From the NCBI GenBank assembly GCA_050186295.1, contig JBFWYP010000004.1, forward strand, positions 81,773 to 145,772: 64,000 bases of DNA, in the 5' to 3' direction. This DNA comes from Thermoanaerobaculia bacterium (GTDB lineage Bacteria > Acidobacteriota > Thermoanaerobaculia > Multivoradales > JAGPDF01). The notes beneath the pieces are model-generated. The model was given only the letters and a program-made list of their open reading frames with translations. It had not been told where the DNA came from and searched no databases. Positions within the stretch are counted from its first letter, which is position 1; each line of letters begins with the position of its first letter. This document shows positions 15,511 through 29,211 of this stretch, in pieces. The position numbers and the translations under genes were made by a program.

Positions 15511-16668
15511 TCAACCTGCTTCCGCGGCCAGCTCCTCTGCGTAGCGCTGGTAGGAGAAGATCCGTCCGCGTCGCCGCTTCGTGAGCTCGGCCACCAGCCC
15601 CAGCTTCTCGAGGTGTACGAGCGACTTGTTGACCGTGGCGGGAGTGAGTCCCGTCGCCTCGACGAGCGAGCCGGAGGTCGAGATCGGCTGCCGCTGCAAC
15701 GCCTCGTGCACCGCGAGCGCCGACGGCGCCGCGCGGCCCAGGCCGACGATGCGCTCCCGATCCTCGGCGACCAGGGCGAGGAGCGCGTTCGCCGTGGCGA
15801 CCGCCTGCGCCGCGCTCACCTCGACTCCCTCGGCGAAGAACTCGAGCCAGCTCTCCCAGTCGCCGTGGAGTCGCACCTCGTTCAGCAGCTCGTAGTAGCG
15901 AGCGCGGTGCATCCGGAAGTAGAGGCTCGGATAGAGCATCGGCTCGCGCAGCACACCGTCGGCGACGAGCTGAAGGACGATCAGCAGACGCCCGAGGCGG
16001 CCGTTCCCGTCGAGGAACGGATGGATCGTCTCGAACTGCACGTGCGCGAGCGCCGCCTTGAGCAGCGGCGGCGTGGCCTCGGACTCGTCGTTCAGGAAGC
16101 GCTCGAACTGCCGGAGACAGTCGGGCAGCGCGTTTGCCGGGGGCGGAACGAAGGCGGCGTTGCCCGGCCGAGTGCCGCCGACCCAGACCTGCGAGCGGCG
16201 GATCTCCCCCGGCATCCTGCTCTGCCCGCCGGGATGGGCGAGCAGCACTGCGTGCATTCCGCGCAGCAGTCGCATCGAGAGCGGCATCCCGCCGCGCAGC
16301 GCGGCGAGGCCGTGCTCCAGCGCCGCGACGCAACGACTGACTTCGCGGGCATCCTCCACCGGCACGCCCGGCTGCTCGTCGATCTCGAAGAGCAGCAGGT
16401 CGGCGAGCGAGGACTGCGTGCCTTCGATCTGCGACGAGAGCACCGCCTCCTTGCGTACGAAGCTGTAGAGCACGAGCGCAGCATTCGGCAGATGCTCGGT
16501 GAGTGCATCGAGCCGCCCCAGGGCAACGAGCGCGTCGTCGAAGCGTCGCCGCAACGCCGGCGACCAGACGATGGCCGGCTCCGGCGGCAGCGGTGCAGGC
16601 ACGAACGCCCGGAAGCGCTCGCCGGAGGCGGAGACTTCGACGTAGGTTCCGGGATCGGAGCGGTGCAT
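15511..16668 (-). CDS. Fic family protein (AMPylase) with an N-terminal inhibitory SxxxEG motif and a C-terminal winged-HTH
   Basis: Canonical HPFLDGNGRLGRLL Fic motif. An upstream SSQIEG matches the (S/T)xxxE(G/N) inhibitory helix. The C-terminal wHTH-like segment is ...EATGLTPATVNKSLVHLEKLGLV. Confidence 0.85.
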   Translation of the reverse strand: MHRSDPGTYVEVSASGERFRAFVPAPLPPEPAIVWSPALRRRFDDALVALGRLDALTEHLPNAALVLYSFVRKEAVLSSQIEGTQSSLADLLLFEIDEQPGVPVEDAREVSRCVAALEHGLAALRGGMPLSMRLLRGMHAVLLAHPGGQSRMPGEIRRSQVWVGGTRPGNAAFVPPPANALPDCLRQFERFLNDESEATPPLLKAALAHVQFETIHPFLDGNGRLGRLLIVLQLVADGVLREPMLYPSLYFRMHRARYYELLNEVRLHGDWESWLEFFAEGVEVSAAQAVATANALLALVAEDRERIVGLGRAAPSALAVHEALQRQPISTSGSLVEATGLTPATVNKSLVHLEKLGLVAELTKRRRGRIFSYQRYAEELAAEAG

Positions 16669-16743
16669 GAATATGGCTAGAAACCTGAAACAAGCGACCT
16701 CGTTATTTTAGATTAAGCTCCTTTTCTAAATCAACCTGCCTCC
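16669..16743. promoter_or_regulatory. AT-rich spacer (about 35% GC) between the DUF2779 stop and the Fic start; probably holds the DUF2779 terminator and the Fic promoter
   Basis: The sequence aaacctgaaacaagcgacctcgttattttagattaagctccttttctaaatcaacctgcc is a strong compositional outlier in an approximately 70% GC background. Confidence 0.3.
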
Positions 16744-18303
16744 TCAGCCCCGCTCTGCGACCAGCCGCTCGAGCGCCGCGACGATTTCGATCATCCCCGC
16801 GGTGTCGCGCGCGCAGTAGTCGAGGAGCGCGCGGCGGATCGACTCGCGCTCCGCCGCGGTGGTTCCGGGCGCGTTCGAGCGCACGAACTCGCGCGCCGCG
16901 AGCTGCCCCTCCTGGATCTCGAGCTCGTCGTAGCCGCGGTCGCCCAGCACCGGCAGCACCCGCTTGAGCGAGGCGCTGCCGCGCTGCGCCGGGTGGTAGT
17001 AGTCGAAGCGCGCGAACGGATCGAGCAGATCGACGAGCCGGCCGGTGACGCGCGCCGCCCACTCGACGTGCTCGGGAAAGTGCGCCGCCGTCTCGGCGAG
17101 CACCCGCCGCTCGAACGAAGCGTTGTAGACCAGGATCGCCGGCGGCGGTCCTCCCCCGGCGGCCGCGTCGAGCTCGCCGATCGCCGCCCGCAGCGCCGCG
17201 AGGAAGCCCGCTCGCGGATCGTCGCCGTCCGGCGCCAGCCAGGCGTCGGCGCGCGGCGCCGCACCCTCCTCTTCCAGCCGATGGAGCGAGAACTGGAACG
17301 GGATCTGCTGGTAGGGGCGCGTGCCATCGAACGGCGGCACGGCGGAGGCGAAGGTCTCGAAGTCGAGGAAGAGGCGCGGATACGGGAGCTGCTCGAGGAA
17401 CGAGGCGATCGCCGCGCGATTCACGTGCGCCTCGCCGGTGCGCGCCGCCTCGACCTGGATCCGCTGGTCGGCCTGGAGCTCCGCGGTCGCCGGCAGGGAG
17501 CGGAGGTCGCGCACGCCGCTCCCGTAGAGCTGCCACATCCGCTGCCCGCCGCGGCGGAGGTCGAGGAGGTCGTGCTCCGGCCGTTCGCCCCAGCAGTACG
17601 GCAGGAGCGGGCAGGTGTGCGGCGCCTTGCAGTGCGGACCGATCGCGATCTCCGGCTCCGCCGGAAGCGCCGCGACCGCGACGAGCTCGGCGACCCGCTG
17701 CGGAATCTCCCGCGCCAGCGCCGCGACCTGCTCGCCGAGATCGACGACGGTGAAGAGCCGCCGGAGATCGAGCGCCCCCTCGCGCACGTAGTCCGAGCTC
17801 AGATGCACGAGCGAGGTGCGACGCACCCGCAGCCCGGCCGAGCGCACGATCCAGGCCTGGAGCGCGAGATCCTCGACGTTCTCGTCCCTGGCGGACGTGC
17901 CGCTCTTCACCTCGTACAGATCCCAGGCGCCGGCGCTCCCCGCCTCTCCCCCGTCGTCGTCCACCGGCACCAGGATGTCGACCCGGCAGCCGACGTCGGC
18001 ATCGCCACCACCCTCGCCAGCGCCGCCAGCGCCGCCAGCGACGAACGTCGCCTCGTACAGCGGCAACCGCCAGGCGAGCGCATCGCGCGTCTTCGCCGCC
18101 GCCTCCATCCAGCGGAAGCGTCCACCGGTGATCTCCATCCCGCCCGGAAAGAGCTGCTGCGCCAATCGCCCCACCTCGTGCCCCTGATCGAACACTGCCT
18201 TCGTCGCGGCGTCCACCGGCGGCACGAGCTCCCGGCGATTCGCTTCGATCCAGAGCCGCTTGAAGCACTGCCGGCCGGCGAGGTAGCGGGATTTGGAGAG
18301 CAT
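16744..18303 (-). CDS. DUF2779 protein: Cas4/RecB-like PD-(D/E)xK Fe-S nuclease domain fused to a DnaQ-like DEDD 3'-5' exonuclease domain
   Basis: Starts MLSKSRYLAGRQCFKRLW, the family-typical N-terminus with the first Cys. A D...EVK nuclease core (VDILVPV...DLYEVKSG) and a CKAPHTCPLLPYC Cys cluster. The C-terminal half has Exo motifs LFLDFETF (I), YNASFE (II) and LLDYCARD (III). Confidence 0.7.
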   Translation of the reverse strand: MLSKSRYLAGRQCFKRLWIEANRRELVPPVDAATKAVFDQGHEVGRLAQQLFPGGMEITGGRFRWMEAAAKTRDALAWRLPLYEATFVAGGAGGAGEGGGDADVGCRVDILVPVDDDGGEAGSAGAWDLYEVKSGTSARDENVEDLALQAWIVRSAGLRVRRTSLVHLSSDYVREGALDLRRLFTVVDLGEQVAALAREIPQRVAELVAVAALPAEPEIAIGPHCKAPHTCPLLPYCWGERPEHDLLDLRRGGQRMWQLYGSGVRDLRSLPATAELQADQRIQVEAARTGEAHVNRAAIASFLEQLPYPRLFLDFETFASAVPPFDGTRPYQQIPFQFSLHRLEEEGAAPRADAWLAPDGDDPRAGFLAALRAAIGELDAAAGGGPPPAILVYNASFERRVLAETAAHFPEHVEWAARVTGRLVDLLDPFARFDYYHPAQRGSASLKRVLPVLGDRGYDELEIQEGQLAAREFVRSNAPGTTAAERESIRRALLDYCARDTAGMIEIVAALERLVAERG

Positions 18304-18428
18304 TGGGTCGCCCGGAGGCTGGGCGGAAGAGTATCGCTCCAGGCGGAGAAGACGGAGTTCGCCGGTGTGGCGATGGAAGTGCGACTAGCCCCCGGCGCTG
18401 TGCCAGAGGACCAAACAAATCCAGGCAG

Positions 18429-19100
18429 CTAGCCCGGCCGCTCCAAGACCCGGAAGTATGTATCGAGGTGGACGCGCTCCACGTTCCACTTCCTCGAGAC
18501 CTGGAGTGCGGCCTCTTGAAACCGCTCGTTGCTCTCCACGTCGATGTCGCCGATCTTCCGCCACGCCGGAGCAATGTCCGGCTCCAGCTCGTGGAGACGC
18601 CGGCCGGAGATACTGTCGAGAGGGACCTCGAACCAGTCCGGCGAAACCTTCGAGCCGAACTCGGACTTCAGGAACGCGTTGTAGTAGCAGTCGCGAAGAA
18701 AGATGTTCAGACACTTTCGCGCCAGCCCCCAGGCGCATCGTCCGACTCCAACGGCCTCCTGAATCCTGTCCGTCCAGCGATCGAGTGCCGCGAGGGGCCT
18801 CTTCTGGCCCGACACTCCAAAACTCGACAGGCGGACGTGAGAGAGCGCCGAACGAAGATCGTCGACGAGTCCAGCTTTCTGCCCTCGAGCCGTGGAAGCG
18901 CCAACGGCAAGCCTCGCGCATCGGAGATCAATGGCGAGATGCAAACTAGGCCGCTTCTTGAGAGAAGCCGCCGCTGGGCCCCGGGGTGAACGAGCGGATC
19001 CGCATCGGGGCCGGTGGTTGTCGGCCCTGCCTTCACTCTCAGCATCACTTCGGCATACGAGCCTGTCGCCGCTGTCGACTTCGCTTCGCCACGCTGGCAT
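18429..19100 (-). CDS. Hypothetical protein in the SIR2 operon; start uncertain
   Basis: The C-terminal 130 aa are protein-like and lower in GC (…CLNIFLRDCYYNAFLKSEFGSKVSPDWFEVPLDSISGRRLHELEPDIAPAWRKIGDIDVESNERFQEAALQVSRKWNVERVHLDTYFRVLERPG). The ATG at 19100 is 14 nt after the upstream gene's stop. The N-terminal part is compositionally poor, so the true start may lie further downstream. Confidence 0.4.
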   Translation of the reverse strand: MPAWRSEVDSGDRLVCRSDAESEGRADNHRPRCGSARSPRGPAAASLKKRPSLHLAIDLRCARLAVGASTARGQKAGLVDDLRSALSHVRLSSFGVSGQKRPLAALDRWTDRIQEAVGVGRCAWGLARKCLNIFLRDCYYNAFLKSEFGSKVSPDWFEVPLDSISGRRLHELEPDIAPAWRKIGDIDVESNERFQEAALQVSRKWNVERVHLDTYFRVLERPG

Positions 19101-19114
19101 TTGCGCATCCAACG

Positions 19115-19771
19115 CTAGGGTGAGGCGCCGGGCGCCAAACCTACCGAAACCAAGTAGCGATTGTGCAGTTCCACGAATAGCTTCAGCAACCGCCCAACCT
19201 CGTTCACACAAGACGGTGCGAGAGGGCCGGACCACTCGATTCCAGAGTGCAGAAACCCGTTTCGTGCTTTTGCAACTTCGCCAAGAAATTCCCAGCCCTC
19301 TTCCGCTTCGAGCTCAGCCACTGCTCGATCGAGCGGAACGGCAGTGAGGGTCTGAAACAACTCGGCCATTCGGCGCCGTCCTCGAGCCTTGTCGAATAGA
19401 TCCCGCTGTTCCTCGTTGGCGAGACCTTTGCGCACCATTAGCCTCTTTAGGAGGTGGCGCAGCAACGCTTCCTGAAGGGCACAGAAATAGTTAACAGTCG
19501 CTAGTTCCGCGCCCTTGTTTGCCCAAGGCGGCGCCCCTCCAATGGAGAGTGCCAGCCATCGTTGCTGTTGCATGAGATCCACTAAAGAAAGCACCTGCAT
19601 CGGGAAGTAGGCGCGCGACACAACATTCTCAACACCGCATGCCGGGCAAGGCCATGGCACCGCTGCTCCAAACCGGCCCACGACATCGCACTGGTGGCAG
19701 ATGATGTAGCCACCGAGGACCGCTGAAAGGGGTTGGAGCGGATCGATGTCGTAGAGTTGAAGCTGGGCCAT
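19115..19771 (-). CDS. Zinc-ribbon protein with a HEPN-like RNxxxH motif (candidate RNase effector)
   Basis: CHQC-x16-CPAC zinc ribbon (aa 25-45). The rest is alpha-helical. KARNGFLHSG (R170, N171, H175) fits the HEPN Rx4-6H / RNxxxH signature. GC is lower than in flanking DNA. Confidence 0.6.
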   Translation of the reverse strand: MAQLQLYDIDPLQPLSAVLGGYIICHQCDVVGRFGAAVPWPCPACGVENVVSRAYFPMQVLSLVDLMQQQRWLALSIGGAPPWANKGAELATVNYFCALQEALLRHLLKRLMVRKGLANEEQRDLFDKARGRRRMAELFQTLTAVPLDRAVAELEAEEGWEFLGEVAKARNGFLHSGIEWSGPLAPSCVNEVGRLLKLFVELHNRYLVSVGLAPGASP

Positions 19772-19828
19772 GAACCCGCGTTCAAGCCTGCGTCACTTTC
19801 CAAATCACTCCTAGCTCTCTCGCGACCA

Positions 19829-22624
19829 TCAACTTTGGCTCCTCAGTGTCCTGTAGAGCTCCTCAGCACCTTCGATCCTTCGCATCCGTTCAAGCAGTCG
19901 AAAGGATTCCGACCTGAAACCGGCTGATGAGAGCCTTCTCACCGTCTCTAGCAAGTGGCCATCCAGATCGAAGTCGGGCTCACTGGCGTCCAACGCGAGG
20001 CTGAGCAGGACAAGAACCTCATGCGGGTTCAAGTCCGCTAGCCGTACAAACTCTTCGGCCACTTCATAAAAGTCGACGCCTTTCGCCACTTCTGGAATCA
20101 CTCTCCTCAGCCAGTCCATTGCCTCGTCATCAAGCCGCTCGACGAAGCAGATAAGACGACCAAGGGCTCTCTTCAGTTCAGCCAGACTTCCGGCACCCTC
20201 ATCGCGCAACTCCAGAGTCCGCCGGACGAAGCTGAGGATCTTTGCCACCTGCGTCGCCTCTAGACCTTGCCGCTCAAGTGCCCAATAAAGGTGAGCCACA
20301 ACGACAAGATCCTCCTCACGGCCACTTCCCACGAGAAAGGTCAGGTTCTCGCCGTCGAGCTCCTCCTCCCCCCAGAGATAGCCCAAGCCAACAGACTCCA
20401 CTAGCCGCTCTCGGGCCTGGCGGCCTCTCGGGGGGTGCCTCAGGCCATCGAGAATGACCCCACCGTCGCGAAGAGCACGATAGACGGCACGGGATGTCGC
20501 CGCGTACGCCAATCCGTCCAAGGCGCTCTCCCTCGTCAAACGCCCCTCGAGGGAGAAAACACCCAGAGCCCTTGATCGCACCCACTCGTCGTCTAGATAG
20601 TAGAAGTTTGAAAGCCGCGAGCCGAGCAAAGTTGAGAACTCGAAATTTCCATCCGTGCACCGATCCAACTCACGATCAAAGATCGGCCGAACACGGCTCC
20701 AGGCTGTCGAATGCCCCGCCTTGGCTAGATCAGCCTCGCGACAGCTTCGTAGGGTCAGGCCAATCAGTGACTCAATGACCTTCCCGCGAGTACTGTTGAT
20801 CGCCTGATGCATTGGGTCATCGTCGAGGGTATCGGCAGGCTTCAGGCGATCAAGTAGCGCAGTTGTGATTTCGATCGCAACCTCAAGCAAAGAAGCCGGA
20901 ATCCCTCGGAGCTCGTCACGCGCTCCGGCGGCTAGCGCCTTCATAGCAGCGCTCGAAACGGCCTCTGGCTCCCCCTTCCATGAGAGCACTTCCCTAGTTG
21001 CCCAAGACTCATCGGTAAGCAAGAACTTACGCACGCCGTTGATCAGCTGCTTCCAGAGTTCCGCAGTATCAATGGCTATCTCGGCAACAGAATTCTTTGA
21101 CCAGAGCCTGCTCACGGCCATTAGGAATGCATAAAAGTATTCCGGCCGCGCCTCTAGATAGATAGCCGGGGCGCGAAGGAATTCTTCCGGTGACTCCACA
21201 ATCGCTTCCTCAAACTCTTGAATCAACGCGTCGACGGGGGATCCATTCCACGTCTCATCGCCTCGCATCGCGTTGATCTGCGAAATCAAGGTACCCTCGA
21301 TCGCCATGGCCTTTAGAGCGCCACGTGACAGCGGAGAGGGGCCCGGCCCCCACCTGGTCTCGTGGTAGATCTGGAAGTCGGGGTGCTCGGATGATGGCAA
21401 TGCCCCGGCCGCATTCGCCTTGGCGAGAACCTCTTCAACCCAAGCAAGCCCTTTCCCCTCCAAAGCCCGGAGCCACTTCGCCGTTCGAAATAGAAACTCC
21501 CTCTCGTCATCAGGGTTTGCTCGGGCAACCTCTTCAATCGCAGAGCGCGTTAGCTCCTTCTGCTCTTCACTGAACTCGGCCCATCGTTGCGCAACCAACT
21601 CATAGGTCTCGTGAAACAGATCGACCGCAAAGTGTGCGGTGTTCGGATGAAATGCGGACGCGAGCCCAGCCCATCTCTCTTTTAGGACGTAAAGGCCAAT
21701 CCTGCGAAGAATCTGCGAATCGCTTCGCAAAAGGCCCTCGACAAACTCTCGCGCTCCAGCCTGGCCCGAATCAATCCACTCAAGCGTTGAATCACGAAGC
21801 GCTTCGACAAACCCGTTTGCGACAGCCTCCCAGCTGTGATTCTGATCGTGGTCGCCGATCGATGGTCGAATAGAGCAGCTGAGTTGCTGACCGAGAGATG
21901 TTCCAAAGACCTGGCGGATTCGATCCGAAAGGAGTGCCGTCGCGTCCGCTCCCATTTCCCGGCCGAAAGTTTTTGCGTGGTCCAGCAGAAGCTTTCTTAG
22001 CCAGTACGCTTCGACAGCCGGAACGGCGCGCCCCTGGTCAAGGTCGTCGCTCGCCGGTTCCCGAACTGAAAGAGCGGTCAGGTGCCCGAATACCCGAAGT
22101 GCTAACACTTTGCATCGCGGCTCCTCGCTTCCAAGGAGATTTGAGAGAAGACCCTTGGAAACTGCCTCTGAGACAAGCGCACCTTCGAACCTTCCGGCGA
22201 GCCAAATTGGCAGGAGATCCACGGTCTCTTCACGGATGAGCGAAACCGGAACCGCGCCCAAGATTTCCGCAAAGATCCGATTGGTGTGGTAGTTATCCCG
22301 CTGCTGGGATCCCGACCCCAGACTAACTTCACGCACTACTTCGAGCACCTGCGCTCCGAGCTCGAGATCAGGCTTGGAGCTGGACCGCCTAGCGACCGCA
22401 AGGAGATATCTGAGTACAGGCCAGAAGGGAATTCGGTAGTAGCCCCTGTTCGCCTCGTCTTCCACCGGCACTGGATTCTCGCCAGCGGAAAAGAATCCCT
22501 CCTGCAGCAGGTCTTCGAAATGCTTCTCGGGCTTCTCCCGAGCCGCGAGCTCCTCAAATCCGAACGAGGCGAGCTCTCTGCTCGCTCGCAGCTTTCGCAT
22601 GAAGGCCTCGAAGTTCGCACTCAC
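19829..22624 (-). CDS. Large (931 aa) alpha-helical protein without recognisable catalytic motifs; candidate sensor partner of the SIR2 protein
   Basis: Single long protein-like ORF in a reduced-GC region. No Walker A/B, HxH, DxD or nuclease motifs were seen. Its start overlaps the SIR2 stop (ATGA at 22621-22624). Confidence 0.7.
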   Translation of the reverse strand: MSANFEAFMRKLRASRELASFGFEELAAREKPEKHFEDLLQEGFFSAGENPVPVEDEANRGYYRIPFWPVLRYLLAVARRSSSKPDLELGAQVLEVVREVSLGSGSQQRDNYHTNRIFAEILGAVPVSLIREETVDLLPIWLAGRFEGALVSEAVSKGLLSNLLGSEEPRCKVLALRVFGHLTALSVREPASDDLDQGRAVPAVEAYWLRKLLLDHAKTFGREMGADATALLSDRIRQVFGTSLGQQLSCSIRPSIGDHDQNHSWEAVANGFVEALRDSTLEWIDSGQAGAREFVEGLLRSDSQILRRIGLYVLKERWAGLASAFHPNTAHFAVDLFHETYELVAQRWAEFSEEQKELTRSAIEEVARANPDDEREFLFRTAKWLRALEGKGLAWVEEVLAKANAAGALPSSEHPDFQIYHETRWGPGPSPLSRGALKAMAIEGTLISQINAMRGDETWNGSPVDALIQEFEEAIVESPEEFLRAPAIYLEARPEYFYAFLMAVSRLWSKNSVAEIAIDTAELWKQLINGVRKFLLTDESWATREVLSWKGEPEAVSSAAMKALAAGARDELRGIPASLLEVAIEITTALLDRLKPADTLDDDPMHQAINSTRGKVIESLIGLTLRSCREADLAKAGHSTAWSRVRPIFDRELDRCTDGNFEFSTLLGSRLSNFYYLDDEWVRSRALGVFSLEGRLTRESALDGLAYAATSRAVYRALRDGGVILDGLRHPPRGRQARERLVESVGLGYLWGEEELDGENLTFLVGSGREEDLVVVAHLYWALERQGLEATQVAKILSFVRRTLELRDEGAGSLAELKRALGRLICFVERLDDEAMDWLRRVIPEVAKGVDFYEVAEEFVRLADLNPHEVLVLLSLALDASEPDFDLDGHLLETVRRLSSAGFRSESFRLLERMRRIEGAEELYRTLRSQS

Positions 22625-23625
22625 GGCTCGGCCTCAAGTAGAGCTCTCATCTCGAGCTTTTCCTGCATTACAAGGGGCGTTGCTGCCGGAATTTCCTTGG
22701 CAAACGCCTCCAGCACGTCAATAAGCTGATCGTAACCTCGCCCATCTAGCGCAAACGGAACTAGTTCGATTCCACACTCCTCGCGGTAGTAAGTTCTAAG
22801 CCTTCGCATCATCGCTAGTTCATGCGTGAAATATCCCTGAAGCATGTAGTGCCGCTGAGCTCTTCCAGCCTCTGACCTGTGCCTCGCCTTCTGAACAACG
22901 TACTCGAGAACCTCAAGTTCGTCGAAGCCGTAGCCAACAAACAACACACTGTACTGACTAAAGAGATGCTCCAAGAATGTCAAGATGCGATTCTCATCCT
23001 GACTCGTTCGAACGAACCTATCGTTTGCGTAGTGATCCAAGTAGTCCCGCGTGGTGAGAACCATCTCTTCAGGGAACTCAATCGAACCGTGAAGGTGAAC
23101 GACGGTATCCGGCTGTCTCAGGTCGTCTGGGAGTATCAGGCTCGGTTTGCTCACCATCCTGCGCTTTAGCCGTTGCGGAGCGCTATTCATCGCCGCTTCA
23201 GGCTCGAAGTCGCCCCGATACTCGCGGTCCTCGTCTAGCCACCGATCGTAGTTCGTCGTGACGAAATTCCTCGACAGTCGCGACAGGGCGCGATAGAGCC
23301 GAATACCCTTCTCGTTCTTCTCCCAATCCTTCGGATGGAGTATTGCCTGGAAATCGATTGGCGTGCTGTGTTCCCGCGCCAGTGCGGTGGCAATCGCCAG
23401 TTTGATCTTGGCACCCTTGCGTTTGAGAAGTTCGACTTCAGCGTGATTCAGCTTTCCTCTTTCAACGAAGAATTGTAAGCACCTGTCGGCAAAACCGCTC
23501 CAATCTGGGCATCCAGCGAGCCGCGATGCGCCCGCACCTACGAAAGGCCTAAGGTAACCGATGGCTGCGGCCTCGCGAAGGCCTTCGGGGATCGCTGGTA
23601 TCGCTTGAATATCTGCCAGAGACAT
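22621..23625 (-). CDS. SIR2-like (SIR2_2/DHS-like NAD-binding) domain protein, defence-type NADase candidate
   Basis: MSLADIQAIP...LRPFVGAGASRLAGCPDWSGF (the GAGxS loop), VTTNYDRWLDE (the TTNYD motif) and VVHLHGSIE (the catalytic His motif). It is 334 aa with no deacetylase Zn module. Confidence 0.8.
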   Translation of the reverse strand: MSLADIQAIPAIPEGLREAAAIGYLRPFVGAGASRLAGCPDWSGFADRCLQFFVERGKLNHAEVELLKRKGAKIKLAIATALAREHSTPIDFQAILHPKDWEKNEKGIRLYRALSRLSRNFVTTNYDRWLDEDREYRGDFEPEAAMNSAPQRLKRRMVSKPSLILPDDLRQPDTVVHLHGSIEFPEEMVLTTRDYLDHYANDRFVRTSQDENRILTFLEHLFSQYSVLFVGYGFDELEVLEYVVQKARHRSEAGRAQRHYMLQGYFTHELAMMRRLRTYYREECGIELVPFALDGRGYDQLIDVLEAFAKEIPAATPLVMQEKLEMRALLEAEP

Positions 23626-23780
23626 CGGACCCGAACCTAGACCTGGACTCTGAAGCTCTTCATCACCTCACCCTCCAGCTGATTGATTACCCTCACCGCA
23701 ATCTCCCCCGACTTCGCTTTCTCGAACAGCCTTGAAGTGTCACTACGGTACGTCGCCCAAGCCTCGTCGTCGAAATCGGC

Positions 23781-24365: not shown

Positions 24366-26828
24366 TCAAATTCCCACAACGGCGACGAATTCCCCGACAA
24401 CTCGCACTACTTCGGGCGCTTCCGGCTCCAACACGATTGCCTCGTACCCACCCCGGTCGCTGTCGGGACTGAGAACGATCCGCTCGTGCTGCCAACTCCC
24501 GTCTTCGGCTGCCCCCTTGTCGCTCCTGTAGAGCTTCACCGTGTAGCGGCCCCCGGACTCCGGGTCGGATCCTTCGCGTAGCTCGACCAAGACCACCTTC
24601 CCGGCCCTCGAGCCCGCTGGCGCTTCGCGGAACAGGCACCAGGAGCCGTTCGGGATCCGCCGGTTCATCGACTCGCCGACCACCTGGATCAGGAATCTCC
24701 CGGGGCGGGCTGGGAAATCTTCCGGAAGTGCGACCCAATCGATAGCTTCTGACACCTCGCCGTCCTCCGCCGCCTGAATCAGGGCCTGGAACTCGCTGAA
24801 GCCGCCTGCCGCTGCGCGCAGGTCGAAAACCGGGATGGCGTTCTCGAAAGGCCGAAGCGCTTCGGCAGCCACTCGCTCGAACGGGAGCGAGCGGGCGGGC
24901 CGGCTCTCGGGGGGTGAGGTTGCCTCCGCTTCGTCGGCGCGGCCGGGAAATGCGAGCGGAGTACCGATCCGGCTGCGAAAGAAGCGCTCGGTGTCTTTGT
25001 CCTCGAAGTAGACGAAGCAGCCCTTGAGGCCACGCGAGAGAAGGACTCGGTAGGTGTTCTTCACCAGGGCCAGGAATTCACCCTTCGCTCGCTTGACCTT
25101 GGTGTCCTGCGACACTTCCGGATGCCCCTCCCACACCTGTCGGTCGAGGTCATAGGTCAAGTCTTTCCCGAAGATGACGCCGACAAAGTCGAACTCGAAT
25201 CCCTGCGCCGTATAGACACAGCCGATCTGGAAAAGACCTCCTGGATCGTGCGCCCAGAGATTGGACTTGGGGATACCTGGGGCGAGCTTCCCGGCGTCGG
25301 GCCTGGCATTCCATGGCCGCGCGAATCCGTCGATGGTGACATCGTTCTCGAGCTGGCCGTTCTTGTCCGGTTTCGACCAAGGCCAACAGAATCCGGCAGT
25401 GAGGCGCGCCGTTGCTCCGGCCTGCACTTTCGAACGAATCAGCTGATCGAGCTCCTCGGGGCTCTCGCAGATGCCGAACTCGAAGCCTTCCTCGGTCTGC
25501 AGGATGCTGCTCGGCGTCTTTTCGATTCCGAGCGTGTTGTTGACCCACTCGACGAACTGGTCGGAGCCGGCGCAGCGGAACTGTGCGTGCAGCTCATACT
25601 CGAGCACGCGGCAACCCAGTGACGCGGCACTGGAGCGGATGTAGTCCGTAGAGCCGATCTCTCCAGGCCGCACGACCTGGCGATCGTCCACGAAGTAGAC
25701 GCTCACCTTGGAGGCATGGATCAGCTCCTCGACCTGCGGTAGGCCGCTGCGCCGACTCTTCGGCGTAAACCGGTCCACGCTCGTCGTCCGGATCCGGTGC
25801 GACTCGTCGCAGATCAGAACGTCGATCTCGTTCGGTTGCGCCTCGACGTAGCTATTGAAGTACTTGAACTGCACCTGGCTCCGCGAGCCGACCATTTTCC
25901 GCAGCGTTTCCGTGAACGCCTTCGAACCGGTCGCATAGTGCGAGTTGAAGCCCTCCGCGAGAAGCGAGCTCATGAGATTGAGCGCGATGACCGACTTCCC
26001 GGTCCCGGGTCCGCCACGAACGATCAGGACGGTCTTCTTCGCGTCGTGGAAGCCGGACTTCGCCAGCGCGAGGACCTTGCTGTGAACGACCAGCTGCTCA
26101 TCCAGGAGGACATACTGCGGCAGGCCCTGAATCACCTTCGCGACGTGGTCCATCAAGCGCTTGCTGGCGCGGTACTTTCCCTCTTCGATGCGCTGCAGGA
26201 CCGGCATCCCGTCCCCGCCACGGAGCCGCTCCGCGAGGAACTGAGAGAGCTCGTCGGAGTGCGACGCAGTGAATGACGGCGCCTCCTGGAGAATCTGCTG
26301 GTAGCGCGGGCGGAAAAGGGTGTCGTCGGCGACCGGGTTGTAGTTGTGCAGAAAGGCGCAGGCGGTCACCCCGACGGGCGACTCTCCTTCGTAGAAGGCG
26401 GTGTGCCCATCCTTCAGATACTGCCTGTAGGCGTTCGCCTGGGCAGATGGGTGCAGAACGTCGCGGATCGCACCGCCGACCCAGGTCTGCACCAGATTCT
26501 CGCCGTCCGACTCCTCACACTGCTCCCACTGCTTGAGCTCGATGATGATCGCCTGGGCCCGGCCCGGCTCGTCGTGCCCGCAAACGAGGCAGTCGAGCCG
26601 CTTCGATGTCAGTGGCAGTTTGTATTCGAGGAGAACGCCGTGGTCGTCGAGCGAGGAGCGCTGGAACGTCAGCGTCAGTGCGCGGAGCGAGTTCTGCCAG
26701 GAAGCGACCTCGCCATCGCCGGGCTTGTATCCGAAGTGGGCGACGAAAGCCTCGACGAGCTTGCCGGCAATCCGGTTCCGTGCCGTGTCCTCGAAGAGCT
26801 GGGTCGTGCTTCCTGAATACAGCCTCAT
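24366..26828 (-). CDS. DUF2075-type nuclease/P-loop NTPase (PD-(D/E)xK N-domain plus SF1-like ATPase) fused to a C-terminal LexA/S24-like peptidase domain
   Basis: N-terminal SWQNSLRAL and ...RLDCLVCGHD...AIIIELKQW (D-ExK). Walker A VRGGPGTGKS (aa 271-279) and Walker B VLICDESHR. The C-terminal 120 aa read ...LRAAAGGF...LIQVVGESMNRRIPNGSWCLFRE...GKVVLVEL...RYTVKLY. This gives a GESM serine nucleophile plus a downstream Lys, with an Ala-Gly about 45 aa upstream. Confidence 0.75.
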   Translation of the reverse strand: MRLYSGSTTQLFEDTARNRIAGKLVEAFVAHFGYKPGDGEVASWQNSLRALTLTFQRSSLDDHGVLLEYKLPLTSKRLDCLVCGHDEPGRAQAIIIELKQWEQCEESDGENLVQTWVGGAIRDVLHPSAQANAYRQYLKDGHTAFYEGESPVGVTACAFLHNYNPVADDTLFRPRYQQILQEAPSFTASHSDELSQFLAERLRGGDGMPVLQRIEEGKYRASKRLMDHVAKVIQGLPQYVLLDEQLVVHSKVLALAKSGFHDAKKTVLIVRGGPGTGKSVIALNLMSSLLAEGFNSHYATGSKAFTETLRKMVGSRSQVQFKYFNSYVEAQPNEIDVLICDESHRIRTTSVDRFTPKSRRSGLPQVEELIHASKVSVYFVDDRQVVRPGEIGSTDYIRSSAASLGCRVLEYELHAQFRCAGSDQFVEWVNNTLGIEKTPSSILQTEEGFEFGICESPEELDQLIRSKVQAGATARLTAGFCWPWSKPDKNGQLENDVTIDGFARPWNARPDAGKLAPGIPKSNLWAHDPGGLFQIGCVYTAQGFEFDFVGVIFGKDLTYDLDRQVWEGHPEVSQDTKVKRAKGEFLALVKNTYRVLLSRGLKGCFVYFEDKDTERFFRSRIGTPLAFPGRADEAEATSPPESRPARSLPFERVAAEALRPFENAIPVFDLRAAAGGFSEFQALIQAAEDGEVSEAIDWVALPEDFPARPGRFLIQVVGESMNRRIPNGSWCLFREAPAGSRAGKVVLVELREGSDPESGGRYTVKLYRSDKGAAEDGSWQHERIVLSPDSDRGGYEAIVLEPEAPEVVRVVGEFVAVVGI

Positions 26829-26831
26829 CGA

Positions 26832-27206
26832 TCAGAGCCGATCGTACTTGCGGTTGCTGCCGCGCGATCTCTCGACCGGATATTTCGACTCGTTGACCAC
26901 CAGCTTGGCGCGCAACGCATTCGCGGGGTCGATCCCGTTCCGCTCACAGAACCGCAGGAGAAAGAAGAGTGTGTCGCCGATCTCGTGTTCGATCGCCAGG
27001 CGATCGTTGGCGTCCGCGAGCCGCTCCTCGACCTCCTCGTCGCTCAGGAAGCGGAACTGCGCGAGGAGCTCGGCCGCTTCGGTGGCAAGCCCGATCGCCA
27101 GATCTTTGGGTGAGTGAAACGGATCCCACTCGCGCGCCTCGCAAAAGGCCTGGACCTCCTTCGCCAGCGCCGCAAGCGTGTCGCTCCTCGCACTGCCCTC
27201 GCTCAT
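26832..27206 (-). CDS. MazG-like nucleotide pyrophosphohydrolase (small all-alpha NTP-PPase)
   Basis: ATG at 27206 with a GGGAG RBS 5 nt upstream. It is preferred over the track TTG at 27311, which would leave only 17 nt to the upstream gene. The 124-aa protein has EAAELLAQF...EEExxE...EIGDTLFFLLRF motifs. Its stop lies 3 nt before the start of the downstream DUF2075 gene. Confidence 0.7.
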   Translation of the reverse strand: MSEGSARSDTLAALAKEVQAFCEAREWDPFHSPKDLAIGLATEAAELLAQFRFLSDEEVEERLADANDRLAIEHEIGDTLFFLLRFCERNGIDPANALRAKLVVNESKYPVERSRGSNRKYDRL

Positions 27207-27327
27207 GCGACTCCCATCGAAGTGAATTGCTGGCGGCACTCTACCGAACCGATCCGCCAGGGCCTTCGCCTCCTCACCCGTATCAACGAACAACTCCCCC
27301 AAACCGGTCAAATCGGGCGGAGTTTTC

Positions 27328-28526: not shown

Positions 28527-28868
28527 ATGGCCGGCGGTGACGAGGAGCGTCCGCTCGTGTGGCTCGGGGGAGAGATTCGCACTCCGCCGCTCTCCCACGC
28601 AGCCCGCGTCGAAGCCGGCCTGCTGCTCCGGCGCCTGCAGGCGGGCGAATCGATCGGCATGCCGTACTGCCGGCCCATGCCGTCGGTCGGCGAGCGCTGC
28701 TACGAGCTGCGAATTCCGGATCGCGCGACCAGTTGGCGCATCGTCTTCCGGCTCGACGCAGATGCCGTCGTGCTGCTCGAGGTCTTCGCGAAGAAGACGC
28801 GGGCAACCCCATCGTCGGTGATCCAGACCTGCAGGCGGAGGCTCCGCAGGTACGAAGGGAGAGTGTGA
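28527..28868 (+). CDS. higB: Type II toxin, Gp49-like/HigB-like RelE/ParE superfamily
   Basis: A 113-aa protein. ERPLVWLGG...CYELRIPDRATSWRIVFRLDADAVVLLEVFAKKT matches the Gp49/HigB pattern. It is followed 25 nt later by an XRE-HTH gene. Confidence 0.65.
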   Translation: MAGGDEERPLVWLGGEIRTPPLSHAARVEAGLLLRRLQAGESIGMPYCRPMPSVGERCYELRIPDRATSWRIVFRLDADAVVLLEVFAKKTRATPSSVIQTCRRRLRRYEGRV

Positions 28869-28893
28869 TGCACGGAATCGTCGGAGAGATCCC

Positions 28894-29211
28894 ATGAAAC
28901 CCGCCAAGCGCGCGCGGCTCGAAGCCTCCGGCTGGACTGTCGGTACGGCGGCGGAGTTCCTCGCTCTCGACGAGATCGAGTCGGCGATCGTCGACCTGCG
29001 ACTGACCCTCGGCCGGTCCCTTCGCGATCGGCGGACCCGCAGAGGACTCACCCAGTCGGAGCTCGCGCGGCAACTCGGTTCGAGTCAGTCGCGGGTGGCG
29101 AAGATGGAGGCCGCGGACGCCTCGGTATCGCTCGACCTGCTGATCCGCTCGCTTGTCGCACTCGGAGCGCGATCGAAGGAGATCGCGCGGGCCATCGCAC
29201 CCGGTTCCTGA
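28894..29211 (+). CDS. higA: XRE-family HTH antitoxin (HigA-like)
   Basis: A 105-aa protein. LRDRRTRRGLTQSELARQLGSSQSRVAKME is a canonical HTH_XRE. A GGAGAG RBS precedes the start. It pairs with the upstream toxin. Confidence 0.7.
   Translation: MKPAKRARLEASGWTVGTAAEFLALDEIESAIVDLRLTLGRSLRDRRTRRGLTQSELARQLGSSQSRVAKMEAADASVSLDLLIRSLVALGARSKEIARAIAPGS

Follow-up and report, generated by a model that had tools for sequence, protein, structure and literature searches.

A rare zinc-ribbon protein family with a predicted HEPN RNase domain, encoded beside a split Dsr1 locus in a Thermoanaerobaculia bacterium

Introduction

The question raised by this locus is whether a small gene that stands directly behind a SIR2 defense system is a component of that system or a defense gene in its own right. 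The gene lies on the minus strand at 19115 to 19771 of a 64,000-nucleotide (nt) stretch of contig JBFWYP010000004.1 from a Thermoanaerobaculia bacterium (GCA_050186295.1); we call this whole stretch the window, and all positions given below refer to it. An earlier reading of the letters alone (the original prediction) had proposed that the gene encodes a zinc-ribbon protein with a HEPN-like RNase motif, that it belongs to a SIR2 operon, and that a SIR2 NADase and a HEPN RNase are combined here in a two-effector abortive-infection module.

Our results point to a different arrangement. The two genes upstream constitute a complete, split form of Dsr1, and the zinc-ribbon HEPN gene appears, from the gene contexts that we compared, to be an independent neighbor and not an obligatory Dsr1 subunit. 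In the reading that we favor with moderate confidence, it would encode a self-contained, single-protein zinc-ribbon HEPN RNase of an undescribed family that is held inactive until infection and then acts abortively.

Results

The open reading frame (ORF) itself was confirmed. It runs from ATG to stop on the minus strand, measures 657 nt, and encodes 218 amino acids (aa) plus the stop codon. Its start codon is credible, since the N terminus of the protein lines up with the N termini of its homologues. An identical protein is on record at NCBI as the metagenome-assembled genome (MAG) hypothetical protein AB7G12_05970 of a Thermoanaerobaculia bacterium (GCA_050251375.1).

HMMER, run exhaustively over 1.84 billion cluster representatives, recovered 179 relatives at E≤1e-3, 87 of them at E≤1e-10. 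Nearly all are 215 to 240 aa long, match from end to end, and show 25 to 41% identity. A word-indexed search of 5.8 billion proteins retrieved only the query itself when the single protein was used and only 5 proteins when an alignment was used. A separate search for related loci with a 13-member sub-alignment gave 2 from genomes and 12 from metagenomes, which were mostly short. The clusters that hold family members are all named "hypothetical protein," and members occur patchily and rarely, in single-member clusters scattered across phyla. The family is rare and unnamed, and it is not modeled in Pfam, NCBIfam, PADLOC, or PHROGs.

The motif that drew attention to the protein is RNGFLH (R170 to H175; 19247 to 19264, minus strand), a predicted catalytic Rx4H that is the sole Rx4-6H within the 218 aa and whose position near the C terminus agrees with the original prediction. 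For a protein of this composition, about 0.8 Rx4-6H and about 0.009 RNxxxH would be expected by chance. RNxxxH occurs twice among the 78,034 residues of the long stop-to-stop ORFs in the window, so that the motif by itself is not significant at that scale. Because the motif alone is weak evidence, the test rested on conservation among relatives.

Conservation was counted in an alignment of 98 full-length family members, numbered according to the window protein. Six residues are kept in all 98, namely, C25, C28, C42, C45, R170, and N204. The remaining motif residues are nearly as constant (N171 in 95 and H175 in 97), as is E101 (19469 to 19471, minus strand), an acidic residue of helix 2 that is glutamate in 93 members and aspartate in the other 5. 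In the window protein this residue forms part of an E-x3-R sequence with R105, although position 105 is not kept as K or R across the family. The four invariant cysteines belong to an N-terminal Cys4 zinc ribbon (residues ~22 to 57; 19601 to 19708, minus strand), to which modeled strands and weak Pfam matches also point. It is formed by CHQC (residues 25 to 28; 19688 to 19699) and CPAC (residues 42 to 45; 19637 to 19648), both on the minus strand. The ribbon had been predicted correctly, but the spacer between CHQC and CPAC is 13 residues and not the 16 originally given. Among 119 near-full-length representatives, 115 carry CxxC-x(11-19)-CxxC, in which the commonest spacer length is 15, and 107 carry RNxxxH. 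This family-wide conservation argues that the family is real and that selection, not chance, maintains both its zinc ribbon and its R-N-x3-H motif.

Two further observations were made on the alignment. Four proteins of 263 to 273 aa (P0080, P0085, P0105, and P0126) have an N-terminal extension of ~45 aa and keep the zinc ribbon while having lost R-N-x3-H; they are presumably catalytically inactive relatives. In addition, N204, C188 (95/98), and H203 (85/98) sit in a last-helix L-F-V-x-L-H-N motif outside the HEPN signature, where they might form another metal site or extend the active site. C97 is kept in 73 of the 98.

As described by Anantharaman et al. (2013, PMC3710099), the HEPN core comprises four helices, the last of which is often kinked, and an insert separates helix 2 from helix 3. 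Helix 2 carries a conserved acidic residue, typically within E-x3-[KR]. The Rx4-6H motif sits where helix 3 ends and extends into the loop behind it, its R being followed by N, D, or H. A single-sequence AlphaFold model of the window protein was poor (predicted local distance difference test [pLDDT] score of 48) and was discarded, and an alignment-based AlphaFold2 model reached a pLDDT of 90.9 and a predicted template modeling score of 0.88. In the latter, short beta-strands in residues 23 to 54 correspond to the ribbon and are followed by helices at residues 58 to 76, 82 to 114, 119 to 128, 132 to 143, 147 to 153, 157 to 176, 184 to 190, and 192 to 207. We assign residues 58 to 76 as helix 1, 82 to 114 as helix 2, 119 to 153 as the insert, 157 to 176 as helix 3, and 184 to 207 as a kinked helix 4. 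RNGFLH occupies the C-terminal end of helix 3, from which a loop leads to the kinked last helix. Every point of the published layout recurs in the model, at the level of secondary-structure order only, and together with the profile matches described below this marks residues 58 to 207 (19151 to 19600, minus strand) as a predicted HEPN-like helical domain.

Profile searches pointed in the same direction. The window protein alone had no match in Pfam, NCBIfam, or PADLOC, and against PDB sequences both it and the family profile returned only zinc-ribbon noise. When the 98 members were scanned singly against Pfam, HEPN_RiboL-PSP (PF18735) was matched by 18 (best E, 3.7e-5) and HEPN_Apea (PF18739) by 13 (best E, 2.7e-5); these were the only recurrent families besides the weakly matched zinc ribbons. 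In one member, residues 65 to 205 align to positions 9 to 185 of the 191 in the RiboL-PSP model. The family consensus gave Apea at an E value of 0.017, DUF4145 (PF13643) at 0.17, and HEPN_Swt1 (PF18731) at 0.42. Recurrent PADLOC matches of the members were to CARF-HEPN, Csx1/Csm6, RT-HEPN, and Cas13-ApeA models, along with Cas12f-type zinc ribbons. In hhalign comparisons of the family with single HepT and Ymh sequences, the motif alone was aligned, on RNIVAH of HepT and RNRKAH of Ymh, and these alignments were not significant.

Taken with the model, these matches suggest that the family is likely to belong to the HEPN superfamily, and it can be filed in no named HEPN family because all matches stayed under the gathering scores. 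What the family shares with the RiboL-PSP-HEPN, Apea-like, and Swt1/Abi2 groups is an Rx4H with N after R, the helix 2 acid, a motif placed where helix 3 ends, the insert between helices 2 and 3, the kinked helix 4, and neighborhoods rich in restriction-modification (R-M) and Abi genes. It differs from them in its subthreshold scores and in the extra invariants N204, C188, and H203. Zinc-ribbon fusions have been listed for the Swt1/Abi2 (Npun_R5629) and DUF4145 HEPN groups (PMC3710099), so that the architecture itself is not new.

Is the gene then a part of the SIR2 system upstream of it? That system consists of a 334-aa SIR2_2 protein (22621 to 23625, minus strand; Pfam SIR2_2, E 9.5e-19), which matches positions 1 to 292 of the PADLOC Dsr1 model (E 1.2e-53), and a 931-aa protein (19829 to 22624, minus strand), which matches positions 310 to 1166 of the 1227 in PDLC04166 (E 8e-83). 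As described by Garb et al. (bioRxiv 10.1101/2021.12.14.472415), Dsr1 (defense-associated sirtuin 1) is a SIR2 NADase system made of one protein, whereas two genes are present at the window locus. Since these two genes jointly cover PADLOC's single-protein model, they are the N- and C-terminal halves of a complete split Dsr1. The NCBIfam Dsr1 model barely sees them (E ~4e-7), in contrast to the strong match to one PADLOC Dsr1 model. The 931-aa partner has about 20 homologues, all of 929 to 952 aa, and a GTDB genome search for loci with this partner returned no relative. The two-gene form, with a SIR2_2 protein of ~330 aa and a partner of ~940 aa, was found in at least four other loci (L016 to L019) from different phyla, including Desulfovibrionales, Proteobacteria, and others.

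The idea that the zinc-ribbon HEPN gene forms an integral third part of this SIR2/Dsr1 system, with NADase and RNase being triggered together, draws on its location 57 nt behind the partner gene on the same strand, with no terminator-like site between, and on a G+C content at third codon positions near equal to that of both Dsr1 genes and unlike that of either flank. However, the Dsr1 model is already fully covered by the two upstream genes, and these overlap by 4 nt while the HEPN gene is set apart. In all four related loci, SIR2_2 is directly upstream of the 931-aa relative, but what lies downstream of the partner differs in each case: a 553-aa protein of unknown function, a 169-aa unknown protein after a gap, a convergent DUF6414 gene, and an HNH/ScoMcrA-like gene. 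A search of all ORFs in these loci with the family profile (hmmsearch) found a zinc-ribbon HEPN relative in none of the four. Conversely, hmmsearch with the SIR2 and partner profiles found a homologue of either in none of 18 other independent loci of the zinc-ribbon HEPN family. Because this pairing was absent in 4 of 4 and 18 of 18 cases, the gene is not a regular Dsr1 component. We judge an integral role improbable, and the proposed two-effector module is not supported by these comparisons. Dsr1 and the zinc-ribbon HEPN protein have in common that they are immediate neighbors and are both predicted abortive-infection effectors.

The loci of other family members show with what kinds of genes the family does keep company. 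No gene family was common to the neighbors across seven representative loci. One member lies 16 nt downstream of a type IIG R-M enzyme, another between Mrr (26 nt away) and DUF2971 in an island with PIN/HepT toxin-antitoxin genes, another after AAA and TIR_2 genes, and another in an integrase/primase element; DUF499 or HATPase_c_3 ATPases are nearby in further cases. In an Elusimicrobiota genome (L021, 7270 to 8693), the HEPN gene starts ~3 nt after a 242-aa Hypoth_Ymh gene, which makes a tandem of two different HEPN proteins. Elsewhere the gene is solitary between tpiA/secG and a MoCF gene, or stands beside polA or beside genes for TPR proteins. In Marinobacter sp. DUT-3 (L020, NZ_JBNRMG010000001.1, 1076508 to 1093155), it follows a class II ribonucleotide reductase gene and a TSCPD gene, near an IS110 transposase; this member was the only one from a cultured isolate in a pattern-based search of GTDB species representatives. 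Such contexts are typical of an autonomous module of one gene that has a tendency to end up in defense islands.

These contexts also bear on the idea of a promiscuous accessory or back-up effector that needs a primary defense gene, be it R-M, Mrr, TIR, Ymh-HEPN, or Dsr1. Such dependence would suit the frequent position of family members 3 to 50 nt behind varied defense genes, as in the type IIG R-M, Mrr, Ymh-HEPN, and TIR cases above, and the placement 57 nt behind Dsr1 in the window; many HEPN families are moreover encoded in R-M operons (PMC3710099). It is hard to reconcile with the solitary genes in several genomes, which stand between housekeeping genes on a strand of their own, and no mechanism is known that would couple one protein to such unrelated partners. 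A dependent effector thus seems to us rather unlikely.

Although linkage to SIR2 is not conserved across the family, the claim of operon membership keeps some ground in this genome. The HEPN gene is separated from the Dsr1 partner gene by 57 nt (19772 to 19828, minus strand; G+C content, 0.561), as originally stated. We found no terminator-like hairpin between the SIR2, partner, and HEPN genes, and the only such hairpin on the same strand is at 18421 to 18437, after the 128-aa gene described below. A sigma-70 scan predicted no promoter anywhere in the region and is hence uninformative on operon structure. All three genes are part of a low-GC island of ~18.4 to 27.3 kb in a genome of ~70% G+C content, and within it they stand out by their G+C content at third codon positions (GC3), which is 0.606 for SIR2, 0.630 for the 931-aa partner, and 0.626 for the HEPN gene. 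The other island genes have values of 0.829 (128-aa gene), 0.757 (a 143-aa gene), 0.811 (helicase), and 0.794 (MazG), and host genes have values of 0.88 to 0.91. The three genes form one compositional block of ~4.6 kb, and their common low GC3 makes it likely that they arrived as one block. The GC3 step (19115 to 23780) suggests that a younger 4.6-kb cassette is nested in an older island. Common GC3 and the lack of a terminator-like site together make both co-acquisition and co-transcription of the HEPN gene with the split Dsr1 plausible in this genome. Scans for Rfam families, tRNAs, and direct repeats in the surroundings of the island revealed no end markers and no RNA partner.

On the other side of the HEPN gene, a 128-aa gene (18429 to 18815, minus strand) raises the alternative of a toxin-antitoxin pair in which the HEPN protein is the toxin and the 128-aa protein the antitoxin. 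HEPN toxins are common in such systems, and the RNxxxH-type motif is shared with HepT/MNT and other HEPN toxin-antitoxin modules (e.g., 7AE8); the 128-aa gene shares the strand of the HEPN gene and is followed by the terminator-like hairpin. Against such a pair, the two genes are separated by a gap of 299 nt (18816 to 19114, without an Rfam match) and differ in GC3 (0.829 versus 0.626), the 128-aa protein has no match in Pfam, PADLOC, or NCBIfam, and a homologue of it was found beside none of the other family members examined. No MNT-type partner adjoins the gene, and the family differs from HepT/MNT modules in that it has no MNT or conserved antitoxin gene, its helical insert is longer, and a zinc ribbon is added. 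We therefore consider a toxin-antitoxin pair highly improbable.

The remainder of the island and its surroundings hold further genes. An 820-aa Schlafen-group-3/DUF2075 helicase (24366 to 26828, minus strand; E 1.7e-82) shows a weak C-terminal match to Peptidase_S24/LexA-like domains that is below the cutoff (E 5.7e-4) and PADLOC matches to PDC-S41, AbiO, and Nhi; its gene is called at 613 aa by one source and at 820 aa by another. A MazG-like gene (26832 to 27311, minus strand) ends 3 nt before the helicase start. On the high-GC side, the island is flanked (15511 to 18303, minus strand) by genes for a 385-aa Fic/DOC protein with a C-terminal winged helix and a 519-aa DUF2779 protein with a faint Cas4-like match. 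Beyond the other end, a Gp49-family (HigB-like) gene and an HTH_3/XRE gene (~28527 to 29211) form a probable toxin-antitoxin module.

Discussion

The closest known analogue of the zinc-ribbon HEPN protein is RAZR, to which no sequence or profile link was detectable. PD-T7-4 was annotated as a "Zn finger-HEPN" system encoded by a single ORF of 661 nt (Vassallo et al. 2022, PMC9519451). It has since been renamed RAZR (ring-activated zinc-finger RNase), a protein of ~25 kDa per monomer in which a Cys4 zinc ribbon at the N terminus precedes a DUF4145/HEPN domain at the C terminus, where R146 and H154 are essential (Zhang et al. 2026, PMC13017515). RAZR alone is nontoxic and forms linear oligomers; upon infection, its zinc-finger domains assemble around rings of a phage Erf-like recombinase or portal protein, and the active enzyme cleaves RNA nonspecifically, resulting in abortive infection (PMC13017515). 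The family described here resembles RAZR in being encoded by a single gene of near-equal size (657 nt versus 661 nt), in combining an N-terminal Cys4 ribbon (residues 25 to 45) with a C-terminal HEPN-like domain (residues 58 to 207), in having no partner gene, and in occurring on islands and mobile elements. The two differ in their motif, which is the canonical R-N-x3-H here and R146/H154 in RAZR, and in their affiliation. While RAZR is a DUF4145 protein, our family consensus reached this model with only 12.4 bits against a cutoff of 23.1, the window protein had no DUF4145 match, and DUF4145 was not among the Pfam families matched by at least 2 of the 98 members.

By analogy with RAZR/PD-T7-4 and with HEPN RNases in general, we propose that the enzyme would be inactive until infection, with the zinc-ribbon domain likely serving as the sensor or assembly module. 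Two HEPN domains might dimerize so that R170, N171, H175, and E101 make up a composite RNase site that needs no metal, and the activated enzyme would then cleave RNA, possibly stopping translation and aborting the infection. In this cassette, the HEPN enzyme would work in parallel to the Dsr1 NADase and not as part of Dsr1, its gene having probably been acquired, and probably being transcribed, together with the split Dsr1.

Several observations weigh against such a self-contained defense RNase. About half of the sampled family contexts are not obviously related to defense, and no homologue was found in a plasmid collection searched by tblastn or in PHROGs. None of the curated HEPN models was matched at its gathering score. 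Foldseek searches of the AlphaFold2 model against the PDB gave no match at an E value below 0.1, the best HEPN structure being the toxin 7ae8 at rank 7 (E 1.1; template modeling scores, 0.30/0.38); RAZR was absent from the top 50, and nothing significant was found in BFVD. The PD-T7-4 model of PADLOC, which we take to be included in PADLOC-DB 2.0.0, was matched neither by the window protein nor by any of the 98 relatives. Moreover, the family profile did not reach the RAZR chains of 9Y6U and 9Y9C among PDB sequences at E≤10, both entries being present in the searched copy, as confirmed via their Gp77 chain. Finally, the zinc finger of RAZR is its most variable, specificity-setting part, whereas the ribbon of our family varies no more than its HEPN region does (mean pairwise identities of 0.31 for residues 1 to 57 and 0.31 for residues 58 to 207). 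The HEPN-like RNase motif as originally predicted is borne out by its conservation, by the helix layout, and by recurrent HEPN profile matches, but not by scores above threshold, and the structure prediction suggested as a check returned the helix order of HEPN domains without a significant structural match.

The same fold and profile results could instead speak for a non-immune protein, either a zinc-ribbon protein, HEPN-like or simply helical, that binds RNA or nucleotides in housekeeping or regulation or one whose R, N, and H residues do not serve RNA cleavage. Several housekeeping contexts, the loss of the motif in one subclade, and the invariant N204, C188, and H203 outside the canonical HEPN signature are in line with this possibility. 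However, the family is distributed in rare, single-member clusters across phyla, its genes are found on low-GC islands and mobile elements, and about 90% of its members have the full catalytic triad pattern. Because patchiness, islands, and a kept triad pattern together are more in keeping with a conflict gene than with a housekeeping gene, we regard a non-immune role as unlikely and continue to favor the single-protein zinc-ribbon HEPN RNase.

A more specific scenario is that the family is a separate lineage, converged on or far diverged from RAZR, whose member in this cassette has become functionally wired to the split Dsr1. We find this quite improbable. If it were true, one infection signal would bring about both NAD+ depletion and RNA cleavage, which might, for example, insure the cell against phages that rebuild NAD+.

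Our findings correct the annotation of this cassette, which is better described as a split Dsr1 with a HEPN gene that is independent of it than as a three-part system. A second zinc-ribbon HEPN family that is unrelated in sequence to RAZR suggests that this design is more widespread than defense finders report. The ~180 sequences of the family, one of them from a cultured Marinobacter, could be used to ask whether the activation principle of RAZR generalizes.

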